Shown: positions 311-35,845, counted from the first letter of the stretch. The stretch is DNA of 64,000 bases from an uncultured Parcubacteria group bacterium (GCA_903944135.1 CAJAQL010000029.1:1487-65486), one strand, 5' to 3'. Numbers and translations: made by a program. Notes: generated by a model from the letters alone, not told the origin.

Positions 311-2533
311 TCACTCGCGGTGGAGATTTTTTTGGAATGCCGCGAGCCGCGCTTTGAGCTGGAGATGGTTCTTGAATGTTGGATCGGTTCGGACGGTTTC
401 CGACGCCGCTTCGCGGCTGGTCTTCACAAGCGCCGGATCGCGGAGGGCTTCGAGCGTCGCGTCCGAGAAACCGCTTTGCACCTCACCAAAGAATTCGCCG
501 GGACCGCGGAGCTTGAGATCTTCTTCGGCGAGCTCGAAACCATTTTTCGCCTTAAGGATCGCCCGCAGGCGGGCTTTCGCTTTTTCGCCCTTCATTTCGG
601 TCATCAGGAAACAGTAGGATTGATATTCGCCGCGCCCAATACGGCCGCGGAATTGGTAGAGCTGGGCAAGGCCGAATCGGTCGGCGCCTTCGATGATCAT
701 GATCGCCGCGTTCGGCACGTCAACGCCCACCTCAATGACGGATGTCGCGACCAGCATGTCGATCTTTCCTTCTTTAAAGTCGCGCATGACAGTTTCCTTT
801 TCTTTCGGTTTCATTTTTCCGTGGAGCATGGCGATCTTGAACTCCGGGAATATTTTTTTACTGAGCTTATCGTATTCTTCTTCGACGGATTTCAGATCCA
901 ACGTCGATGTGGAAAATTTTTTGCTGTCATTCCCGCTCAGGCGGGAATCCAGAGTCTTCTTTTTCTGGGTTCCCGCCTGAGCGGGAACGACAGAGTTAGA
1001 TGAGGCGACATCGGTATCCGGCGTGATGAGCGGGCAGATGACGAATGCCTGCCGCCCCTTTTTGATCTCGCCACGTATGAATTCATAGGTCGCCTGCCGT
1101 TCGATCGGTGACACGATTTTGGTCACGATCGGCTTCCGGCCGGCGGGCAGTTCTGTGATAAGCGAAACGTCGAGATCGCCGAAGACGGTCATCATCAAGG
1201 TGCGCGGGATCGGAGTCGCGGACATACTGAGAAGATGCGGTATGCCTGCCGCGCTCGCGCTGCGCGCCAGCGTTTTCCGCTGATTGACGCCGAAGCGATG
1301 CTGTTCGTCGATGACGACAAGCCCGAGATTGTTGAAACGGGCGGATTTTTCGACAAGTGCGTGGGTGCCGAACACGATAGCGATCTCGCCCGCGGCTGAT
1401 TTTTTCCAGAATTCCGCTTTCGGTGTTTTTGCCGTCAGGTCGTTGTCGTAGAGCATGATCGTACCGCTTCCCGTCGCAAGGCCAACCGTAGGCTGATCTT
1501 CTGGTTTCACATGTTTGAGGAATCTTTGGAAGGTTTCGAAATGCTGGCGGGCGAGGATCTCGGTCGGTGCCATAAAAACGGTCTGGAATCCGTGCTCGGC
1601 GGCGGTGATCGCCGCGATCGCGGCGACGATCGTTTTGCCTGAACCGACATCGCCCTGCAGAAGGCGGTTCATCGGTTTCGGTTTGGCGAGGTCCTGCACG
1701 ATGTCCCAGAGCGACTGCTTCTGCGATTGCGTGAGCGAAAAGGGGAGCGTTGCGAGAATGTGTTTGATGCGTTCAATATCGATCGGTATCACGGGAGCCT
1801 GTTCATGGCTCAGCTTCAGTTTTTGCTGGAGATTGAAAAGCTGAAGGAGGAAAAGATTTTCGAATCGGAATCTCCTCTCTGCGGTGGCGGCGTCTTCGAA
1901 GCGGGCAGGAAGATGGATGTCCTGCAGGGCTTTTTGCAGGTTCGGGAGATCATAACGCGAGAGGATCTCTTGCGGGATCCACTCTGCGAGCGCGGGATTG
2001 TGTCTCATGGCGATGCGGATCGCGAACCGGATGCCGCGCGAGGTGAGCCCCTTGGTTTCCGGATAAACGGGAACAAGCCGTCCGGTATGGATAGCTTCGG
2101 AATCCTGCCTGACTACTTCGTATGTGGGATTGTTGAAATAAAGCTCGTTCTCTTCCGAGATGGAAACCTTTCCGGAAAAGTTCGCGATGCGGCCCGCGTG
2201 GAGCGTGTTTGCGATATAGGGCTGATTGAACCAGACGGCGCGGATGGTCCCCGATTCGTCCGAGAGCATCGCTTCGATGATGGTGAGGCCCCGCCGCGTG
2301 CGGCGCGAAGTCACTTCTTCGATGGCGGCCTGAACCGTGGCGAGTTCGCCGGGTTCAAGATCGTCGATCTTGCAGATCTCCGAGAAATCTTCGTAGCGCG
2401 AGGGAAAATGCCAAAGGAGATCGCGGACGGTCTTTATCCCGATCTTTTCGAATCGCTTTAAGAGGGGAGTGCGAGCACCCAGGATGTCATAGAGCGGCGT
2501 TTCAAGCGAGATTTCCCGCATATGATTGGCCAT
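311..2533 (-). CDS. recG: ATP-dependent DNA helicase RecG
   Basis: Walker A GSGKT, a DEQHRFG box, the helicase C-terminal motif QxxGRxGR (YQFRGRIGRGE), and overall RecG-like domain order. The true start is probably MANHMREIS at 2533; the ORF-track N-terminal extension runs through a repeat element. The gene contains an in-frame palindromic-repeat insertion at 926-995. Confidence 0.85.
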   Translation of the reverse strand: MANHMREISLETPLYDILGARTPLLKRFEKIGIKTVRDLLWHFPSRYEDFSEICKIDDLEPGELATVQAAIEEVTSRRTRRGLTIIEAMLSDESGTIRAVWFNQPYIANTLHAGRIANFSGKVSISEENELYFNNPTYEVVRQDSEAIHTGRLVPVYPETKGLTSRGIRFAIRIAMRHNPALAEWIPQEILSRYDLPNLQKALQDIHLPARFEDAATAERRFRFENLFLLQLFNLQQKLKLSHEQAPVIPIDIERIKHILATLPFSLTQSQKQSLWDIVQDLAKPKPMNRLLQGDVGSGKTIVAAIAAITAAEHGFQTVFMAPTEILARQHFETFQRFLKHVKPEDQPTVGLATGSGTIMLYDNDLTAKTPKAEFWKKSAAGEIAIVFGTHALVEKSARFNNLGLVVIDEQHRFGVNQRKTLARSASAAGIPHLLSMSATPIPRTLMMTVFGDLDVSLITELPAGRKPIVTKIVSPIERQATYEFIRGEIKKGRQAFVICPLITPDTDVASSNSVVPAQAGTQKKKTLDSRLSGNDSKKFSTSTLDLKSVEEEYDKLSKKIFPEFKIAMLHGKMKPKEKETVMRDFKEGKIDMLVATSVIEVGVDVPNAAIMIIEGADRFGLAQLYQFRGRIGRGEYQSYCFLMTEMKGEKAKARLRAILKAKNGFELAEEDLKLRGPGEFFGEVQSGFSDATLEALRDPALVKTSREAASETVRTDPTFKNHLQLKARLAAFQKNLHRE
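926..995. repeat. Composite palindromic repeat (two ~28-bp stem-loop units in inverted orientation around a T-rich spacer), inserted in-frame in recG
   Basis: gtcaTTCCCGCtcagGCGGGAAtccagag tcttctttttctgg gtTCCCGCctgaGCGGGAAcgacagag. On the coding strand this gives ...VVPAQAGTQKKKTLDSRLSGNDS... without breaking the reading frame. Confidence 0.8.
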
Positions 2534-2576
2534 AGTATAGCACAAAAGATGAGTCAAGAGAAACGGGATATTTCTT

Positions 2577-2650
2577 GTCGTTCCCGCGTAGGCGGGGATC
2601 CAGGTTTTCTTTGGTACCATTCTGGATCCCCGCATTCGCGGGGACGACAG
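2577..2650. repeat. Composite palindromic repeat (same family) immediately upstream of the recG start
   Basis: gtcgTTCCCGCgtagGCGGGgatccagg ttttctttggtaccatt ctggatcCCCGCattcGCGGGgacgacag. Two units lie in inverted orientation around a 17-bp spacer resembling the spacer of the copy inside recG. Confidence 0.75.
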
Positions 2651-2706
2651 AAGGGAATTTGGTTGAAATTTTTCAAATAAGATTTTATTATGGATGAGTT
2701 GGTTTT

Positions 2707-2741
2707 GCCCCTATAGCTCAGTTGGTAGAGCAGCTCCCTCT
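2707..2741 (+). other. tRNA-Lys 5' fragment (35 nt identical to the 5' part of the tRNA-Lys at 2814)
   Basis: gcccctatagctcagttggtagagcagctccctct is identical to the 5' part of the full tRNA, then diverges into a GCGAAAT-aaga-ATTTCGC hairpin. Confidence 0.6.
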
Positions 2742-2813
2742 GCGAAATAAGAATTTCGCCCGTTGGTTCGCTCATTGAAAACGAAAGAAGGAAAAATGCA
2801 TTGCGATCAGCGT

Positions 2814-2886
2814 GCCCCTATAGCTCAGTTGGTAGAGCAGCTCCCTCTTAAGGAGATGGTCCCAGGTTCAAATCCTGGTGGGGGCA
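2814..2886 (+). tRNA. tRNA-Lys (anticodon CTT)
   Basis: Hand-folded cloverleaf: acceptor GCCCCTA/TGGGGGC, D-arm GCTC-AGTTGGTA-GAGC, anticodon loop CTCTTAA (CTT), T-arm CCAGG-TTCAAAT-CCTGG. No encoded CCA. Confidence 0.8.
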
Positions 2887-2936
2887 CACCGCTCGAAATT
2901 CTTTCCTTCTTTCGTTTTCACTTCGCTGCCAACGGG

Positions 2937-2979
2937 AAGGAGATGGTCCCAGGTTCAAATCCTGGTGGGGGCACACCGC
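2937..2979 (+). repeat. Direct repeat of the tRNA-Lys 3' half (43 bp)
   Basis: aaggagatggtcccaggttcaaatcctggtgggggcacaccgc occurs identically at 2850-2892 and 2937-2979. Confidence 0.7.
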
Positions 2980-3116
2980 GTAGAATTTTTTAATTCTTTT
3001 TCGCGAGCGAACCGATAGCCGATTCTTTTTTCGGGTCATTGGTTTCGCCCTAGAGGTACAGAGGGTGAAATTGATTTTTAATTTATGGCATAATAAACAA
3101 ATGGGCGGGGCGGTGT

Positions 3117-4817
3117 ATGAATCGTCTATTCTCCATGATGGCGCATCAGGGTACTATCAAAATGACATGGCGAGGGAAAACGTTCCTTGTTCTGTTTTTA
3201 TTGCTTATTTTTCTTCTCTCTTTCCATCAGATATGGGATTCTGACACGTTTTACCATATTAAAACCGGTCAAGTTATCCTGAGCAGCGGACGCGTGCCCA
3301 CGGCGGATATTTTTTCCTATACCGCGCCAGGAGCTCTTTGGGTGACCCACGAATGGCTCGTGGAAGTGATTTTTTATCTGGTCACCGCGGGTTTCGGCCT
3401 TTGGGGATTGATCGGATTCGCGGCTTTTTGCATTACGCTCAGTTATTTCCTTGTCGTAAGGTCGGCGCTTCAGAAAAAGGCGAATATTTATATCGCGCTT
3501 ATTTTCGGCTTCATCATAGCTTGCCCGCTCGTCATTCATTCCGTGTCGACCAGCGCCGCGGCGATGGCAGCGCTTGCTTTTTCCTTCCTCATTTACTGTC
3601 TGGAAAAATATCGGACGGCCCCACGGGTCTTTTATTTGGCATTATCGGTCCTGGTCATATGGCTTTGGGCGAACATGCACGCGAGTTTTTTACTTGGATT
3701 GGTGGTCATCACTTTTTACGCGATCGCTCTGAGAGCTCAAATGAAATTTCCCCGTTGGTTCGGAAAGGCGCGTATCGATGCCCGACGGGCCAATTATCTC
3801 TCCGTGGCGGCGCTTGTCTCATGGGGAGCGGCTTTTCTTAATCCGAACACGTACCGGATCTTCTTTTATATTTCTTACGTGCAGGAGCTTGCGAGAGTTC
3901 TTAATATAACCGAATACCACTCCGTCCTTTCCTTGCTCGGCAATCCGATCGCGCAGGCTTTTTTGGTGGAAGTCATCTTGTCGGGGTTGTTCCTTGTCTG
4001 GCATTATGGCATCAAAGAGGAGGGTCGTGATGCGGTGACGCTCGGCTTGTTCTGCGGAGTCTCCATCCTTCCGTTCATTTCCATAGCTTATACGATCTTT
4101 TGGCCGTTCGTCGTGATCGCGCCACTTGCCGTGGCGGCGTCATCCATTCTGGACCGCGGAACAAAAAAAATATCTTGGGGGATTCTCTTTGGGTTGTTTG
4201 CGGCGCTTGGTCTTCTTGCGCTTGTCGCTGCGATCATTTCGTTGCCGAGGAGTCCCGTAAGCGACACCGCGCTTCCCGTGAAAGCGGTTGATTTTATCAA
4301 GCAAAATAATATCCATGGCCCGCTTTTTAATACCTATGATGATGGCGGATATCTGATATGGGCACTTTGGCCCCAAGAGAAGGTCGCCATTGATATGCGT
4401 TCGGAAGTTTTCAGGGGCCGGCCCGTGCAGGAATATTTGGATGTTATGAACGCCGAGAGCGATTGGAAACAGATCGTCGATCAGGAATACGGCATTAATT
4501 ATTTTGTTTTGCATTACTGGAAGCAATCCATCAGTTCTGGTTATGCTCCTCTTTTTGAGGCGTTGTCCAATGATAATTTCAGAATGGTCTATTGGGACGA
4601 TAATGCCGTCATCATGGTGCGTGCGACGCCGGAGAATGAGCATCTGATAAAAGAATACGGGACAAGCCATGTTGATCCGTTCGTGCTGCCGGAGGATATT
4701 TCGACCAATGTCAGCCAGACCGAGGCCGAGCTGAAGGCGCTTGCAGCGCGCTTCCCTGGTGTCCAGGATATACAGTATTTCTTGGCGCGCTTCCTGCAGA
4801 CGCATGGCCTGCAGTAG
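3117..4817 (+). CDS. Polytopic membrane protein with a C-terminal soluble domain; possibly a GT-C-like glycosyltransferase (ArnT/PMT-like)
   Basis: 566 aa with more than 10 predicted hydrophobic helices followed by a ~180-aa hydrophilic C-terminal domain. Start codon uncertain. Confidence 0.35.
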   Translation: MNRLFSMMAHQGTIKMTWRGKTFLVLFLLLIFLLSFHQIWDSDTFYHIKTGQVILSSGRVPTADIFSYTAPGALWVTHEWLVEVIFYLVTAGFGLWGLIGFAAFCITLSYFLVVRSALQKKANIYIALIFGFIIACPLVIHSVSTSAAAMAALAFSFLIYCLEKYRTAPRVFYLALSVLVIWLWANMHASFLLGLVVITFYAIALRAQMKFPRWFGKARIDARRANYLSVAALVSWGAAFLNPNTYRIFFYISYVQELARVLNITEYHSVLSLLGNPIAQAFLVEVILSGLFLVWHYGIKEEGRDAVTLGLFCGVSILPFISIAYTIFWPFVVIAPLAVAASSILDRGTKKISWGILFGLFAALGLLALVAAIISLPRSPVSDTALPVKAVDFIKQNNIHGPLFNTYDDGGYLIWALWPQEKVAIDMRSEVFRGRPVQEYLDVMNAESDWKQIVDQEYGINYFVLHYWKQSISSGYAPLFEALSNDNFRMVYWDDNAVIMVRATPENEHLIKEYGTSHVDPFVLPEDISTNVSQTEAELKALAARFPGVQDIQYFLARFLQTHGLQ

Positions 4818-22713: not shown

Positions 22714-23814
22714 ATGGTCGTACTATTTTTGGCTGCGGCCATAGCGATACTCGCGATCTTGTTCTTAGGGCATCTGGCGGTATATCTATTCTTCCTATCC
22801 GTCTTTCCAGCCATCGGCGGGAACCTACTGGCATTTCAGATCGTCATCGGTATTTTATGGATCAGCTTCGTCGTGGCATCCCTGCTTTCACAGAAAATCA
22901 ATAATGTCGGAACAAGGATGCTCTATAGGGTTTCCGCCGCGTGGCTCGGCTTCTTTGTCTATCTGCTCATCGGGGCGTGCGTGTATGGTGCGGTTTTCGC
23001 GCTTTACCCGGCACCGCAACAAACCATGTCGTGGATAGGGGAAACGCTCATGTTCATTGCCCTTGTTCTGGGCCTCTACGGCATCGTAAATGCCAACCGG
23101 ATACAGATAACTTCCATCAGTGTCGCGGTACCGAACTTGCCGGAGAAATGGAGATCGCGCAAAGCGGTCTTCATGAGCGATCTGCACCTCGGGCAGGTGC
23201 GCGGCGCTTCGTTCGCAAAGCGTATCGTCGCGAAAATACAGGAATTGAAACCCGACATTGTTTTTATCGGCGGCGATCTCTATGACGGCGTGGCCGTGGA
23301 TGCCGAGAGCGTGATCGAGCCGCTTGCGGAACTCAAGATCCCGCTCGGCATCTATTTCGTGACCGGAAATCACGAGGAATTTTCCGACAGTTCAAAATAT
23401 CTGTCGGCCATCCGCGGAATAGGGATTACGGCGCTCATGGACGAAAAGGTCATGATCGACGATCTTCAGCTTATCGGCGTCGACTATGCGCGCACGACCA
23501 AGAAAGCGGCGTTCGATGATGTTTTGCAAAATCTGCATATCGACCGGAAATCACCGAGCATCCTTCTGAAGCATGTGCCGTCCGATCTGGATATCGCGCT
23601 GAAATACGGGATCACGCTGCAACTGTCAGGACATACGCATCGTGCGCAGATTTTTCCATTCACGTTTCTCACGCATTTGATCTTCAAGGGATTCGACTAT
23701 GGGTTGCGCCCGCTTGGCGCGCTGCAAGTGTATACCTCGAGCGGCGTGGGGACGTGGGGTCCGCCGCTCCGCGTGGGAACCCGGTCGGAGATAGTCGAGA
23801 TATTTTTCCGGTAA
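22714..23814 (+). CDS. Membrane-anchored calcineurin-like metallophosphoesterase (paralog of 5858..7012)
   Basis: A TM-rich N-terminus, then FMSDLHLG, GGDLYDG, TGNHE and GHTHRAQ. The domain order is the same as the paralog. Confidence 0.75.
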   Translation: MVVLFLAAAIAILAILFLGHLAVYLFFLSVFPAIGGNLLAFQIVIGILWISFVVASLLSQKINNVGTRMLYRVSAAWLGFFVYLLIGACVYGAVFALYPAPQQTMSWIGETLMFIALVLGLYGIVNANRIQITSISVAVPNLPEKWRSRKAVFMSDLHLGQVRGASFAKRIVAKIQELKPDIVFIGGDLYDGVAVDAESVIEPLAELKIPLGIYFVTGNHEEFSDSSKYLSAIRGIGITALMDEKVMIDDLQLIGVDYARTTKKAAFDDVLQNLHIDRKSPSILLKHVPSDLDIALKYGITLQLSGHTHRAQIFPFTFLTHLIFKGFDYGLRPLGALQVYTSSGVGTWGPPLRVGTRSEIVEIFFR

Positions 23815-32369: not shown

Positions 32370-32525
32370 AAATTCTGGATCAGAGAAGAAATATAAGGCA
32401 CCGCGTTAAGGGTTTATGCAGGAGAAATGGCAGTATGCGTTCAGTGAGCGAAATATCAGACGGTACAGGATACTAATATTAAGGAGACTTTCCAAGGGTT
32501 GCTTTTTTATTTTTCGGCTATACAC

Positions 32526-32609
32526 TAATAATAGTGAGTAATCATTTAGCTGGTAATGAGATCATATTTTATAATGGTTATCTTTAATTGAGGATACTCA
32601 CTATTATTA
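32526..32609. promoter_or_regulatory. Perfect 15-bp inverted repeats flanking a 54-bp -10-bearing segment, upstream of the island's first gene
   Basis: taataatagtgagta (32526-40) ... tactcactattatta (32595-609). The spacer contains ttttataatgg. Confidence 0.5.
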
Positions 32610-32635
32610 TAAAAATTAAAAACCCTAATAAAAAT

Positions 32636-32863
32636 ATGGAGGAAACGTTAGAAGCAATAAAAAAGCGGTTGGATGTTATGGTCCATCTCATGATTCAAAA
32701 AAAAGGGGCCGATTCTGAGGCTCGTTCGCTTAGGGATCAAATTGAGTTGCTGTCTAGTTTTGGATTAAAGCCAAAAGAAATTGCTGAGATTTTAAGTAAG
32801 ACGGGAAAACATGTTAATAAGGAACTCTCCGGAATCCGTAAGATCAAAAAGAGCAAGAAATAA
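32636..32863 (+). CDS. Small HTH protein, paralog 1 of 5 (lysine-rich tail)
   Basis: 75 aa; ...LLSSFGLKPKEIAEILSKTGKHVNKELSGIRKIKKSKK. HTH-like helix-turn-helix pattern. AT-rich codons. Confidence 0.5.
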   Translation: MEETLEAIKKRLDVMVHLMIQKKGADSEARSLRDQIELLSSFGLKPKEIAEILSKTGKHVNKELSGIRKIKKSKK

Positions 32864-32864
32864 A

Positions 32865-33035
32865 ATGCCTATAAAAAAGAAGACAACAGAGGAGTTGCTG
32901 CAAGATTTAATAATTCTTGAATTGGCAAAAGCTGGAGTTTCGCAACCCGAGATTAGAAAAATCATTGGAGTCGATATGTATCGTGTTAATAGAATCGCGC
33001 GCCACTTTAACAAATCAAAGAAAAAGAATACATGA
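32865..33035 (+). CDS. Small HTH protein, paralog 2
   Basis: 56 aa; EELLQDLIILELAKAGVSQPEIRKIIGVDMYRVNRIARHFNKSKKKNT. Starts 2 nt after the paralog 1 stop. Confidence 0.5.
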   Translation: MPIKKKTTEELLQDLIILELAKAGVSQPEIRKIIGVDMYRVNRIARHFNKSKKKNT

Positions 33036-33232
33036 CATCTGATCAAAAAGTTTCATTTGAAAAGTTAGATAGGATTACCGATTCGCTAGAAAGATTAGAA
33101 GTAGTTAATTTATATCTGAATACCGACTTGGATCATCATGCCATAGCTCGGAAATTGGGTATAGGTACTCAACGAGCAACAGGGATTCTTAAGGGTTTTA
33201 AAAAATTAAAAACCAAGAAAGATGGAAAATAA
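33032..33232 (+). CDS. Small HTH protein, paralog 3
   Basis: 66 aa; LERLEVVNLYLNTDLDHHAIARKLGIGTQRATGILKGFKKLKTKKDGK. Start/stop overlap ATGA with paralog 2. Confidence 0.5.
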   Translation: MTSDQKVSFEKLDRITDSLERLEVVNLYLNTDLDHHAIARKLGIGTQRATGILKGFKKLKTKKDGK

Positions 33233-33473
33233 GGGTAATACTCCAAATTCTCTGCTCCGCGAACAACTCAATGTGATTATTGCGTTATTGTTGATTATTA
33301 TCGGAGAGGAAGGTCAAAAAGAATTGCTTAAGAAGAGACGGGCAAATCGGGACTTAATTAAATATCTCCATACGCAGTTTAAATTTAACAATAAAGATCT
33401 CTCTGGAATTTTCAATAGTGCAGAGAATAGTATTGCAAATATGAAGGCGGGTAAAAAAAATAAGAAAAAATAA
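33222..33473 (+). CDS. Small HTH protein, paralog 4
   Basis: 83 aa; ...LIKYLHTQFKFNNKDLSGIFNSAENSIANMKAGKKNKKK. Overlaps paralog 3 by 11 nt. Confidence 0.45.
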   Translation: MENKGNTPNSLLREQLNVIIALLLIIIGEEGQKELLKKRRANRDLIKYLHTQFKFNNKDLSGIFNSAENSIANMKAGKKNKKK

Positions 33474-33474
33474 C

Positions 33475-33675
33475 ATGGATTCAAAAACCGACCGATTATT
33501 GGAAGAGATTAAAAAACTCCTAATTCTCCAGTTGGTAAAGGGTGGGGCGCCTGCTTCAATAGAGGAAGTCGGAGACTCTCTGGGCATTACGGGGAGGACG
33601 GTTCGTAATATCGCTACCTCCTCCAAGAAGCCAAGGAAAAATAATTCCGTACATAAGCAAAAAGGAAGGAAATAG
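33475..33675 (+). CDS. Small HTH protein, paralog 5
   Basis: 66 aa; LLEEIKKLLILQLVKGGAPASIEEVGDSLGITGRTVRNIATSSKKPRKNN. Confidence 0.5.
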   Translation: MDSKTDRLLEEIKKLLILQLVKGGAPASIEEVGDSLGITGRTVRNIATSSKKPRKNNSVHKQKGRK

Positions 33676-33685
33676 CTTTTATAAA

Positions 33686-34408
33686 ATGGCTCGCCCCCGA
33701 ATCCTTGACGAAAAGATAATGTGTAAGATTGCCAAGAAAATTGGTAAGCGTGATGTTGTAGCAATAAATCAAATGGTGAGTAATAAGGCGGCAAAATTAG
33801 GGATCTCAGCAGAAGCCGCCTTAATCTTATTAGCCAAACAGTATGGAGTAGGCTTTTCTACATATCAAAGGAAATTAGATCCAACTAAACAGGCCGAAGT
33901 TAGAGACGCCCTCCCGATAGTTTTTGCGCAAAATATTCGGGGTAAGAGTGGTGTTTTAAGTAAAAGTTCTAAGGTTGTTCAAACTACCACCAAAAGAACT
34001 GCGTTAAAATTCGCTATTGATTATCTGATTCAAGATCAAGAATTAAAAAGCAGATGCACGGATATCCTTCTAGCTTCATCAAATTTTGATAGACCCATTA
34101 ATCAGGCCACGCTTATACTCGAGGATCGAATAAGGAGAAAAGCTCAGCCTAAACAAAAATTGGTTGGAGAAAATTTGGTTGGATATGCATTCAATGAAGA
34201 TTTATCCAAAACAGTATTAGTTGTAGCTAGCAATGACCCCGAAGATCAGCGTGGGTTTACTCAAATTTTACGGGGGATTGTGCCCGCCTTTCGCAATAAA
34301 ACCCATCATCACGTAATAACCAATTTCTCAAGGGAAGATGCGATACGTGTCTGCGGGTTCATTGACGTATTATTACGCGTAGTTGATGGCGCTTCTAAAA
34401 TAAGATAA
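33686..34408 (+). CDS. HEPN-like protein (Ymh/TIGR02391-like C-terminal domain, from memory)
   Basis: 240 aa. The C-terminal ...GFTQILRGIVPAFRNKTHHHVITNFSREDAIRV has an R-x4-H motif followed by an acidic helix, as in HEPN RNase domains. Confidence 0.5.
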   Translation: MARPRILDEKIMCKIAKKIGKRDVVAINQMVSNKAAKLGISAEAALILLAKQYGVGFSTYQRKLDPTKQAEVRDALPIVFAQNIRGKSGVLSKSSKVVQTTTKRTALKFAIDYLIQDQELKSRCTDILLASSNFDRPINQATLILEDRIRRKAQPKQKLVGENLVGYAFNEDLSKTVLVVASNDPEDQRGFTQILRGIVPAFRNKTHHHVITNFSREDAIRVCGFIDVLLRVVDGASKIR

Positions 34409-34415
34409 TAAATCT

Positions 34416-35186
34416 ATGCTAGGGCAAATTGGAAATCGAGGAAATCAGAGACGAGTAGCTTATCGCCTTTCGCCACCTGCTCAATTTTATTCAACTAGTC
34501 TAACTCGCGAAGCGGAGGGGTCAGATTTTTATCCCGAATATAGAATTTTTTTACAGACTATAGAAGCGATAAACAGTTTTAGTTCTCAATATCGGATAGG
34601 GAGAGTCGGCGCGCGTGGTGGTCCAGCGACGCATTCCCAACAAGACCTCTACCGAGCTATGCTTGTTTTTGCGTGCGCCGGTCTAGATTTTCTGGTTAAA
34701 CAATTACTTAAAACCAAATTGACAAGATTAATAGCCACAGATTCAGGAGCAAAGCTAAAGTTCAAGGAATTTGTTCGGCGAGGTCTTGATAAAGATCCCA
34801 GGGAGATTATGAATCTTGCCGCGCTTATATTTACAGAAGAAAGTCCTCGGGATTTACTCTTGAGCGAATATATAAAAAGTTTAACGGGAGATAGTTTACA
34901 ATCCGTTGAACAATTGCTAAAAGTGTCCGGAGCATCTGGTTTAGATCAACAGGCAATTTTTAGCCGTGATAGAATGAATGCCTTAAAAGATGCCTTTATT
35001 GTTAGGAATCAAATTATTCACGAAATGGATATTAATGTTGATGGTCCGAGAGACCAAGGATATAGAACACGGCGACAAAGACGTGCCACGGAGATTGAAG
35101 AATACACAAAAGACATTCTCGATTTAGGGCATGATTTATTTGTTGCGTACAAAGTAAAACTTGGCGTTAGGGGTGGTACCAGATAG
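34416..35186 (+). CDS. Second HEPN-like protein (Rx4H motif), family unassigned
   Basis: 256 aa. C-terminal ...ALKDAFIVRNQIIHEMD (R-N-x3-H-E). No similarity to the preceding protein outside the motif. Confidence 0.45.
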   Translation: MLGQIGNRGNQRRVAYRLSPPAQFYSTSLTREAEGSDFYPEYRIFLQTIEAINSFSSQYRIGRVGARGGPATHSQQDLYRAMLVFACAGLDFLVKQLLKTKLTRLIATDSGAKLKFKEFVRRGLDKDPREIMNLAALIFTEESPRDLLLSEYIKSLTGDSLQSVEQLLKVSGASGLDQQAIFSRDRMNALKDAFIVRNQIIHEMDINVDGPRDQGYRTRRQRRATEIEEYTKDILDLGHDLFVAYKVKLGVRGGTR

Positions 35187-35425
35187 GAGTTTGGCGAACC
35201 CAATAGACTTACGTGAGGGATAGCGCTGTGGTCCGAATGTCATCTAAAGAGCCCACGGGGATTTACCATTCCCCCTATTACGGAATCAGACTCATTCATC
35301 TCTGGGTATGCTGGGTTCGTAAAAAGTACGATTTCATTTAGTCATTTACACCTATTTAACGATGGTATAAGTTATCGAGTTATGCACAGTTGTTGTCGCT
35401 GATATAATAAAGACGCCAATCTAAT

Positions 35426-35498
35426 GGGCCCGTCGTATAGCGGTCTATTATTCGTGGTTGTCATCCACAGGACTCGGGTTCGAATCCCGACGGGTCCA
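35426..35498 (+). tRNA. tRNA-Asp (anticodon GTC)
   Basis: Acceptor GGGCCCG/CGGGTCC, D-loop AGCGGT, anticodon loop TTGTCAT, T-arm TCGGG-TTCGAAT-CCCGA. Confidence 0.75.
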
Positions 35499-35659
35499 CT
35501 ATTTGGCTCAAGGGATACCCCTTGAATCAGTGTTGCTATGTTTGTTATACTGTATAGCGGATGACAACCCAATTTGGTACCTTTGTTTGAGGTTTGTTTT
35601 ACTTCAAGAAGTCATGTCCCTTGAAGTGGTTAGTTTTACCCAAATAAGGGTGTCAACTG

Positions 35660-35687
35660 AAAACCGCCAGCGATGGCGGTTTTTTGG
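35660..35687 (+). terminator. Rho-independent terminator about 160 nt downstream of tRNA-Asp
   Basis: aaaaCCGCCAgcgaTGGCGGttttttgg. Confidence 0.7.
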
Positions 35688-35845
35688 TCTCAGAAAAGAA
35701 AAAGCAAATACATCCAACATCGGAAGGATTAATATATTTTCCTATATAACAGAACTGGTCACTCATGTTTGGTGATTGTACGGAAAAGCAGCGGAAGTAT
35801 TATGTTTTGTTATAGAATAATAATGATAGAGGAGCGTGAAGAAGC

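Follow-up and report, generated by a model that had tools for sequence, protein, structure and literature searches.

HEPN domains of the Ymh type (PF09509/TIGR02391) have been described as solo proteins, in fusions with AbiJ-NTD1, AbiTii and paraMORC, and in restriction-modification neighborhoods (Anantharaman et al., 2013, PMC3710099), and a domain of this type is also present in the B protein of PD-lambda-3, a two-gene system of Escherichia coli that has been shown experimentally to act by abortive infection (PMC13190303). Here, we analyzed computationally a stretch of 64,000 nt from an uncultured Parcubacteria group bacterium (GCA_903944135.1 CAJAQL010000029.1:1487-65486; hereafter the window, meaning the whole stretch), which carries five genes for small helix-turn-helix (HTH)-like proteins (g1-g5, the mini-HTH array), a Ymh-type HEPN gene (g6) and a further HEPN gene (g7). 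Genes 1-6 are one conserved cassette, the canonical form of which is an array of four small genes, A-B-C-D, followed by a gene that joins an N-terminal domain of about 80 aa to a Ymh-HEPN domain. With modest confidence, we read them as a copy of a widespread, horizontally moving conflict cassette, abortive-infection-like or toxin-antitoxin-like, with a putative HEPN toxin.

The cassette departs from each of these relatives. The g6 protein is a member of the Ymh family, and restriction-modification genes are neighbors here as they are in that family; however, an upstream HTH array is not mentioned in the 2013 description, and its list of fused domains does not include this N-terminal domain. 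The similarity to PD-lambda-3 is confined to the HEPN half of its B protein (E 7.2e-8 over g6 residues 65-239), whereas the N-terminal domain is different, a mini-HTH array is lacking in PD-lambda-3, and the PD-Lambda-3_A model matched none of the seven window proteins, so the locus is not a two-component PD-lambda-3 system. Type II toxin-antitoxin systems with HTH antitoxins (HigBA, MqsRA, Xre-RES) have one HTH gene where four to five stand here in fixed order, and instead of a bicistronic antitoxin-toxin pair there are five to seven genes, canonically four small genes plus the effector. Compared with the HEPN toxins of HEPN-MNT and RnlAB/LsoAB, no MNT or RnlB homolog is present, and effectors can be exchanged behind an N-terminal domain that stays constant. 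The searched full-text open literature gave no account of this cassette, and in PADLOC v2 neither the small proteins nor the N-terminal domain are represented by a model. Thus, the cassette is apparently undescribed; modularity with swappable effectors is known, and it is the control architecture that appears to be new.

Composition and recurrence of the cassette

The cassette of genes 1-6 recurs in about 90 public loci. Open reading frames (ORFs) resembling g1, g2 or g4 were detected by phmmer near the g6 homolog (52-74% identical by tblastn) in 71 of 80 metagenome loci, and in most of these 71 the array is co-directional with the g6 homolog and immediately upstream of it. In the modal architecture, a 240-aa protein is preceded by four small genes, of 74, 57, 60 and 78 aa, with gaps of 1-5 nt. 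Exceptions to the orientation are L094 (1696-3259) and L095 (640-2203), in which the array (A, B, D-like) is on the opposite strand, divergent from the Ymh gene, and in L063, L081, L087, L112 and L113 the array and the Ymh gene are separated by a gap of 0.5-0.9 kb. Among the loci without a detected array, eight of nine contigs stop less than 400 nt from the g6 homolog. L133 (1-1316) is the sole g6-homolog locus that has more than 1 kb of upstream sequence and yet no g1-g5-like ORF by phmmer; its array may be very divergent or absent.

Clustering of the small genes by BLAST yielded four position-specific families, A to D. Since profile-profile comparison with hhalign gave probabilities of 81-98% between them (A~D 98%, B~C 97%, A~C 95%, A~B 84%, C~D 81%), the four families are all mutually homologous. 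In addition, differences per site in the four families across about 90 loci amounted to 0.22-0.26, 0.12-0.16 and 0.53-0.60 at codon positions 1, 2 and 3, and this excess of third-position over first-position, and of first- over second-position, divergence indicates that the small ORFs evolve as proteins under purifying selection. A preliminary description of the locus had proposed that genes 1-5 are an expanded, diversified array of HTH-like paralogs. The paralogy is supported by the hhalign comparisons and by recurring sub-threshold HTH matches, and the small ORFs, whose conservation as proteins that description had left as a point that could overturn it, are conserved by codon pattern and by family; the term "expanded" does not fit, as the array is not a free expansion but a fixed-order set, with four position-specific families canonically and five genes in the window.

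The small proteins of the window follow this scheme in part (Table 1). Homologs of g1 were found by phmmer in more than 60 loci (best E 5e-19), whereas a word-indexed homolog search returned only three matches. Orthologs of g3 (E 3e-11) and g4 (E 5e-25) were found in L103-L105, which carry the same divergent C and D types as the window but four small genes only. The fifth gene, g5, is outside the canonical four-gene array; in L119, L121 and L124, the gene immediately before the effector is g5-like, and in L144 and L148 the gene at that place resembles g5 by eye and scores as C-like.

Table 1. Positions of the cassette, gene 7 and neighboring features in the window, with the evidence for each
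Feature	Position	Strand	Evidence
Putative promoter/operator	32526-32609	+	Perfect 15-nt inverted repeat, TAATAATAGTGAGTA at 32526-32540 and TACTCACTATTATTA at 32595-32609
g1, mini-HTH, family A, 75 aa, first gene of the array, tail KIKKSKK	32636-32863	+	BLAST cluster with the position -4 family, 1e-15
g2, mini-HTH, family B, 56 aa	32865-33035	+	Clusters with the position -3 family; phmmer best E 7e-18; Pfam HTH_23 E 0.0029
g3, mini-HTH, divergent, related to family C, 66 aa	33032-33232	+	hhalign versus C 92%, E 6e-7; HTH_23 E 0.0047
g4, mini-HTH, divergent, related to family D, 83 aa	33222-33473	+	hhalign versus D 85%, E 6e-6
g5, extra C-like mini-HTH, 66 aa, between the D-type gene and the effector	33475-33675	+	hhalign versus C 90%; Sigma70_r4 E 1.4e-4
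g6, 240 aa	33686-34408	+	
g6 N-terminal domain, residues 1-81, five helices	33686-33928	+	AlphaFold2 helices 9-19, 24-38, 42-52, 58-63, 66-81
g6 C-terminal Ymh-type HEPN, residues 118-232	34037-34381	+	Pfam, fold, motif
g6 catalytic motif R203-N-K-T-H207-H208	34292-34309	+	Conservation among relatives
g7, RiboL-PSP-type HEPN, 256 aa	34416-35186	+	PF18735 profile, motif, model
g7 motif R197-N-Q-I-I-H202	35004-35021	+	Conservation among homologs
tRNA-Asp(GTC)	35426-35499	+	tRNA scan

The HTH character of the small proteins is indicated by matches that all lie below the curated cut-offs: among 63 members, HTH_23 was matched by 14, Sigma70_r4_2 by 9 and GerE by 5, some members also matched the HTH models of resolvases and ISL3 transposases, and the top HTH match in the window was that of g5 to Sigma70_r4 (21.7 bits against a cut-off of 24.1). 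Profile matches to the PDB were to the HTHs of Pax6 (paired domain), resolvase and sigma region 4, with E-values from 2e-4 to 0.02. Together, they indicate a predicted mini-HTH protein of 55-85 aa, in which an amphipathic helix at the N-terminus is followed by a tri-helical HTH and then a basic tail. A scan of the seven window proteins against NCBIfam and PHROGs gave only the near-match of g6 to TIGR02391 and weak HTH matches.

Some of these matches could also be taken to mean that the small ORFs are not genes, or that the region is a decayed prophage or transposon regulatory region in which only g6 and g7 function. Weak PHROGs matches to phage HTH regulators and small terminases would fit such an origin, as would the ISL3 transposase and resolvase models and a serine recombinase located 2 kb from one variant. 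We consider this explanation highly improbable in view of the codon-position pattern and the family conservation, of the fixed order and 1-5-nt spacing kept across dozens of unrelated contexts, and of the absence of matches in phage, plasmid and viral collections and of an integrase or transposase as a general companion among the contexts read.

The g6 protein matches Pfam Hypoth_Ymh (PF09509) well above the cut-off (55.3 bits against 25, E 7.6e-15) and TIGR02391 slightly below it (36.8 against 39.45 bits). Its motif, FRNKTHHH, is conserved among 24 sequences of 65-75% identity, with R203, T206, H207 and H208 invariant and N204 nearly so, and the predicted fold is the all-alpha HEPN fold, so that the Pfam match, the Rx4-6H motif and the fold expected of the Ymh family are all present. 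By sequence and model, g6 is a Ymh-family HEPN protein and a putative RNase. The family comprises 514 clusters, the best 120 of which are 65-77% identical over the full length. The N-terminal domain is a module specific to this system. In 12 of 13 members it gave a weak signal of similarity to DUF2240, which is the helical domain at the N-terminus of archaeal Rpa1, and among PDB sequences it had no significant match. A relationship of this domain to the mini-HTH families was considered and rejected (hhalign probability <4%). P0316 (492 aa), P0307 (1290 aa) and P0309 (1599 aa) are long proteins made up of repeated HTH-like units, and weakly match g6 residues 34-78; this hints that the domain may contain an HTH-like unit, with an hhalign probability against P0316 of only 24%.

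The flanking genes are unrelated between loci, barring near-identical genomes, and in 47 of 52 loci, across host GC contents of 34-68%, the AT content of the cassette exceeds that of its flanks. In Candidatus Wolfebacteria, the neighbors include NYN, PIF1, Phd/ParE, MazG-like, DNA methylase, DUF4357 and RelB/YafQ genes; in another genome the cassette is located between housekeeping genes. A type I HsdS gene (restriction-modification specificity) begins 4 nt ahead of the stop codon of the Ymh gene in L119 and L128, which makes the cassette translationally coupled to a restriction-modification gene in these two loci. The earlier suggestion of a horizontally acquired, defense- or toxin-like block is therefore supported by the unrelated flanks, the AT-richness, the neighbors and the matches of the effectors to defense models.

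Upstream palindromes and exchangeable output domains

A small HTH gene directly before a toxic gene recalls the controller (C) proteins of restriction-modification systems, which are encoded by a gene for about 80 aa in that position, act at a four-half-site operator over the promoter and give delayed, dosage-controlled expression after transfer. C proteins, however, are single genes whose products form homodimers, whereas the arrangement here would call for four paralogs, each with its own recognition helix, and the sequence similarity is negligible, with weak matches to the PADLOC Control_protein model in 2 of 63 small-protein members.

Alignment of 36 distinct upstream regions revealed conserved blocks in the order cTTGACA ... 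aTaAATAAgAT-N9-gGTAATa ... (TTGACA) ... AtTACCTt-N8-tATTATT ... ATG. The blocks AAATAAgAT-N9-GGTAAT ... ATTACCTT-N8-TATTATT straddle TTGACA and TATTAT-like hexamers; with two half-sites on the outside and two on the inside, they form a pseudo-palindrome over two promoter-like elements, with diverged spacers. The full arrangement is present in 20 of the 36 regions against 0.09 expected from dinucleotide shuffles, a contrast that is inflated by shared ancestry. At the same place, the window has its own, different inverted repeat, which has 54 nt between its arms and ends 27 nt before the start of g1; it is analogous to the canonical four-half-site palindrome, with a different spacing, and fits the divergent C- and D-type proteins of the window. 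A scan for promoters and terminators gave the same counts as expected from shuffles and was uninformative. We infer that these palindromes would be an operator bound by the array proteins; that half-sites and paralogs both number four is no more than suggestive.

With the g6 N-terminal domain as query, a search of 1.84 billion representative proteins gave 83 hits, and the full-length proteins among them were checked for their C-termini. Ymh-HEPN was found in P0265, P0269, P0287, P0289 and P0305, a Swt1-like HEPN in P0276, P0298 and P0318, a predicted pPIWI-associated nuclease (pP_pnuc_1) in P0303 and P0317, a CAP12/Pycsar-type TIR in P0256 and GGDEF in P0266, and five proteins had a C-terminus without a Pfam match. 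The PADLOC matches, to PD-Lambda-3_B, PDC-M34B, Aga_Nuclease and PDC-S35/PycTIR, were confined to the C-terminal halves.

Seven loci with alternative outputs were looked up, one of them without flanking sequence and several on short contigs, and in all six with upstream sequence, mini-HTH genes of the A-D families adjoin the output gene. The Swt1-HEPN gene is preceded by four mini-HTH genes in L145 and by two, and then the contig end, in L147; the nuclease gene is preceded by one in L144, with A, B, D and A downstream, and by two in L148; the TIR gene is preceded by one of C type (L143; E 1.6e-22) and then the contig end; and the GGDEF gene of L146 follows canonical A, B and C (E 1e-27 to 1e-31) and a D-like uncalled ORF identified by eye and unscored. 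Since mini-HTH genes accompany the alternative outputs, the conserved unit is the array plus the N-terminal domain, and the effector is a cargo that can be swapped, as is typical of conflict systems.

Two of these loci show further features. On the 631-kb contig of L146, the array and the gene joining the N-terminal domain to a GGDEF/Cas10-palm-like domain (2194-3789, with the D-like ORF at about 2763-3000) lie beside an N6/N4 DNA methyltransferase gene. In L144 (1522-3475), one C-like gene is before the nuclease gene and four (A, B, D, A-like) are after it up to the contig end; the latter may be a second tandem cassette or a downstream-placed array.

The control region and the outputs also bear on whether the cassette is a pure addiction module, that is, a multi-component type II toxin-antitoxin system which stabilizes islands by means of labile HTH antitoxin-autorepressors and has no role in phage defense. 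Small DNA-binding genes tightly coupled upstream of a toxin gene under a palindromic promoter region, other toxin-antitoxin pairs as neighbors, and the scattered, AT-rich nature of the cassette would all suit such a module, and toxin-antitoxin and abortive-infection roles are compatible with each other. We nevertheless hold a pure addiction module to be unlikely: no known type II toxin-antitoxin system resembles this fixed order of four to five antitoxin-like genes, defense-system effectors such as PycTIR, an Argonaute-associated nuclease and PD-Lambda-3_B are matched by the effector halves, some loci lie beside restriction-modification genes, and the GGDEF output is no toxin.

The GGDEF output fits signaling as well as defense, and leads to another explanation, in which the HTH array and the N-terminal domain are a DNA-bound sensor whose output (RNase, NADase, nuclease or c-di-GMP cyclase) tunes host physiology. 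GGDEF/Cas10-palm domains also work in defense signaling. As most outputs are classic suicide effectors, and the cassette resembles defense genes in its patchy occurrence, AT-richness and variable position, a regulatory device of this kind seems decidedly unlikely, and a conflict cassette remains our preferred reading.

Gene 7 and the setting in the window

In the window, g6 is followed after 7 nt by g7, which reaches 26.7 bits against HEPN_RiboL-PSP (PF18735; cut-off 28.4, E 6.2e-6) over profile positions 23-181 of 191. Most g7 homologs (47-62% identical) carry a precomputed PF18735 match, and R197, N198 and H202 of the motif VRNQIIHEMD are invariant in 34 sequences. The structural model (pLDDT 87.4, pTM 0.82) matched the HEPN proteins AbiA, AF0298, the SO_3166 toxin, sacsin and Csm6. 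As judged from profile and model, g7 is a HEPN protein, probably of the RiboL-PSP type, and a putative RNase. The preliminary description was thus right that genes 6 and 7 encode two different HEPN proteins with conserved Rx4H motifs, as the Pfam families, the motif conservation and the folds agree; the non-HEPN folds or unconserved motifs that would have spoken against it do not occur.

That description had also joined the two proteins into one seven-gene system, in which g6 and g7 could share a composite active site as a HEPN-HEPN heterodimer, and the five HTH proteins could serve them as diversified antitoxins or sensors. HEPN RNases act as dimers (Anantharaman et al., 2013, PMC3710099), and in the window the two genes are adjacent, co-directional and similar in composition, with an intact, conserved Rx4H in both. 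Genes with an RNxxxH-like motif and no Pfam match also follow the Ymh gene in L060/L136 (RNALAH) and L116 (RNSSVH). However, the two domains are from different HEPN families, the gene downstream of g6 homologs varies, and co-occurrence was 0 in about 135 loci: no g7 homolog was found near the g6 homolog in the 80 metagenome loci or in the further gene-6-type contexts read, and no relative of g1-g6 was found near the g7 relatives in 54 loci, taken from one genome per species. Because the two families do not co-occur in any of these loci, their juxtaposition is unique to this genome, and since the g7 family has in addition a partner of its own, the heterodimer is a very doubtful proposition; the claim of a HEPN-HEPN pair acting as one unit is not sustained.

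This partner, seen in 43 of the 54 loci, is an ORF of about 105-130 aa whose end abuts the start of the HEPN gene or overlaps with it. It is an unannotated protein of about 112 aa (MAxYFKTN..TWSYD.DGDFTH) in eight candidate phyla radiation (CPR)-type genomes and a GYPGYPG-repeat protein in 35 genomes of other phyla. Two of the GYPGYPG-repeat partners were scanned against the 4-fold beta-flower model (PF21784), and one scored above the cut-off and the other slightly below. Pairs of partner and RiboL-PSP-HEPN were seen across L002-L055, for example at L016 7627-8630, L027 7696-8687 and L002 7603-8735, and look like a widespread two-gene module. To our knowledge, the 4-fold beta-flower fold has no known function, and this module would give it a functional context.

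Neither type of partner is present in the window, in which tblastn with ten partner proteins gave a best E-value of 0.25. Nor does g7 have another Pfam domain, an endoRNase L-PSP fusion or a ParB neighbor in the window; fusion to L-PSP or a ParB operon are contexts of some RiboL-PSP family members, and do not strictly define the family (PMC3710099). Gene 7 has probably been stacked behind the cassette from another module, with its usual partner absent. Its intactness without the partner suggests either that the partner, instead of being an antitoxin, could act in sensing or activation, or that g7 may now be controlled otherwise. The proteins encoded behind the Ymh gene in two unrelated loci, L136 (8773-9297, equal to L060 6773-7297) and L116 (by a gene 44 nt past Ymh), have 174-186 aa and could be further cryptic HEPN-like proteins behind the cassette.

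As previously noted, the cassette and g7 lie in an AT-rich island beside tRNA-Asp, with seven co-directional, tightly packed genes, and windowed GC together with ORF and tRNA calls bears this out. Between 32.4 and 36.0 kb, 400-nt windows have a GC content of 0.34-0.44, against 0.50-0.57 directly upstream and 0.52-0.55 directly downstream, and the mean is 0.388 for the island against 0.502 for the whole window; the drop is real, and the flanks measure about 50-57% GC rather than the 55-60% first given. The seven ORFs occupy 32636-35186 on the + strand, with junctions from g1 to g7 of +1, -4, -11, +1, +10 and +7 nt, and 32.4-35.4 kb holds no ORF beyond them. Genes 1-5 (75, 56, 66, 83 and 66 aa) and g6 are also called by the public gene annotation of the source contig, in which g7 has 175 aa from an internal start; the 256-aa form is right because homologs conserve residues 24-81.

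The adjacency of the tRNA gene is incidental and no feature of the cassette, a tRNA being next to none of 37 other cassette loci scanned. No integrase was found in the island, and no att-like repeats, including direct repeats of the tRNA-Asp 3' end, were found around it; a tRNA-targeted integrative island was rejected, as the island of the window has neither an integrase nor a tRNA-derived direct repeat. About 160 nt past tRNA-Asp, a GC-rich hairpin with a T run behind it (35655-35690; AAAACCGCCAGCGATGGCGGTTTTTTGG), unflagged by a simple terminator scan, is likely a terminator closing the AT-rich segment. At some distance from the island, ARAGORN called an unusually long tRNA-Gly(TCC) of 85 nt (23317-23401, - strand) inside a 366-aa + strand ORF (22714-23814), which is either a false positive or an odd tRNA.

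Proposed function of the cassette

From the gene content, paralogy, conservation, modularity, folds and motif conservation observed, we infer a mode of action in which repression, neutralization, trigger and RNase activity are conjectural. The mini-HTH proteins would assemble as a hetero-oligomer on the multi-half-site palindromic operator over the promoter and repress the cassette, and would probably also hold the output protein inactive via its N-terminal domain. A trigger, which may be phage infection or the decay of the small proteins after loss of expression, would free the output protein, whose HEPN domains would then dimerize, cleave RNA and arrest growth.

Several points weigh against a conflict cassette that works in this manner. 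Its putative function is read from sequence. The operator is deduced from conservation among kin, by which the shuffle statistics are inflated, and the canonical operator motif was not found in the window or in L103, L116, L122, L100, L097, L144 and L145. The HTH assignment is based on profile matches under threshold, and binding of the small proteins to the N-terminal domain and neutralization of the effector are conjectured only. The contexts with alternative effectors are few (the seven loci), and one of the outputs, GGDEF, has no toxic action to offer. In addition, no match to the cassette or g6 was found in viral contigs or in phage and plasmid records that would point to a vehicle of transfer, and g7 stands intact without its partner.

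A bolder version goes further, and we advance it tentatively, as somewhat short of probable: the cassette may represent an undescribed modular immune family, in which a stoichiometric hetero-oligomer of the four paralogs on a four-half-site operator controls interchangeable outputs (Ymh-HEPN, Swt1-HEPN, TIR, the PIWI-associated nuclease or GGDEF) via an 80-aa adaptor. The sequestration of a DNA-tethered effector that this would entail, which we put forward with the same reserve, would be a new logic, if true.

If our reading is true, the cassette would be a compact (about 1.5 kb), very common and unnamed defense or toxin module of uncultured bacteria. The Ymh form alone accounts for more than 500 clusters, mostly from CPR-type and other uncultured bacteria. 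The hosts of the module would include the small genomes of candidate phyla, where few defense systems are known. The control layer would be unusual, with four distinct mini-regulators in fixed order and an adaptor domain that takes at least five output domains. The family would thus offer a natural experiment on effector swapping behind a constant sensor/regulator and a test case for hetero-oligomeric operator recognition. It is a candidate addition to PADLOC and DefenseFinder, and its analysis corrects the attractive but unsupported idea of a two-HEPN heterodimer.

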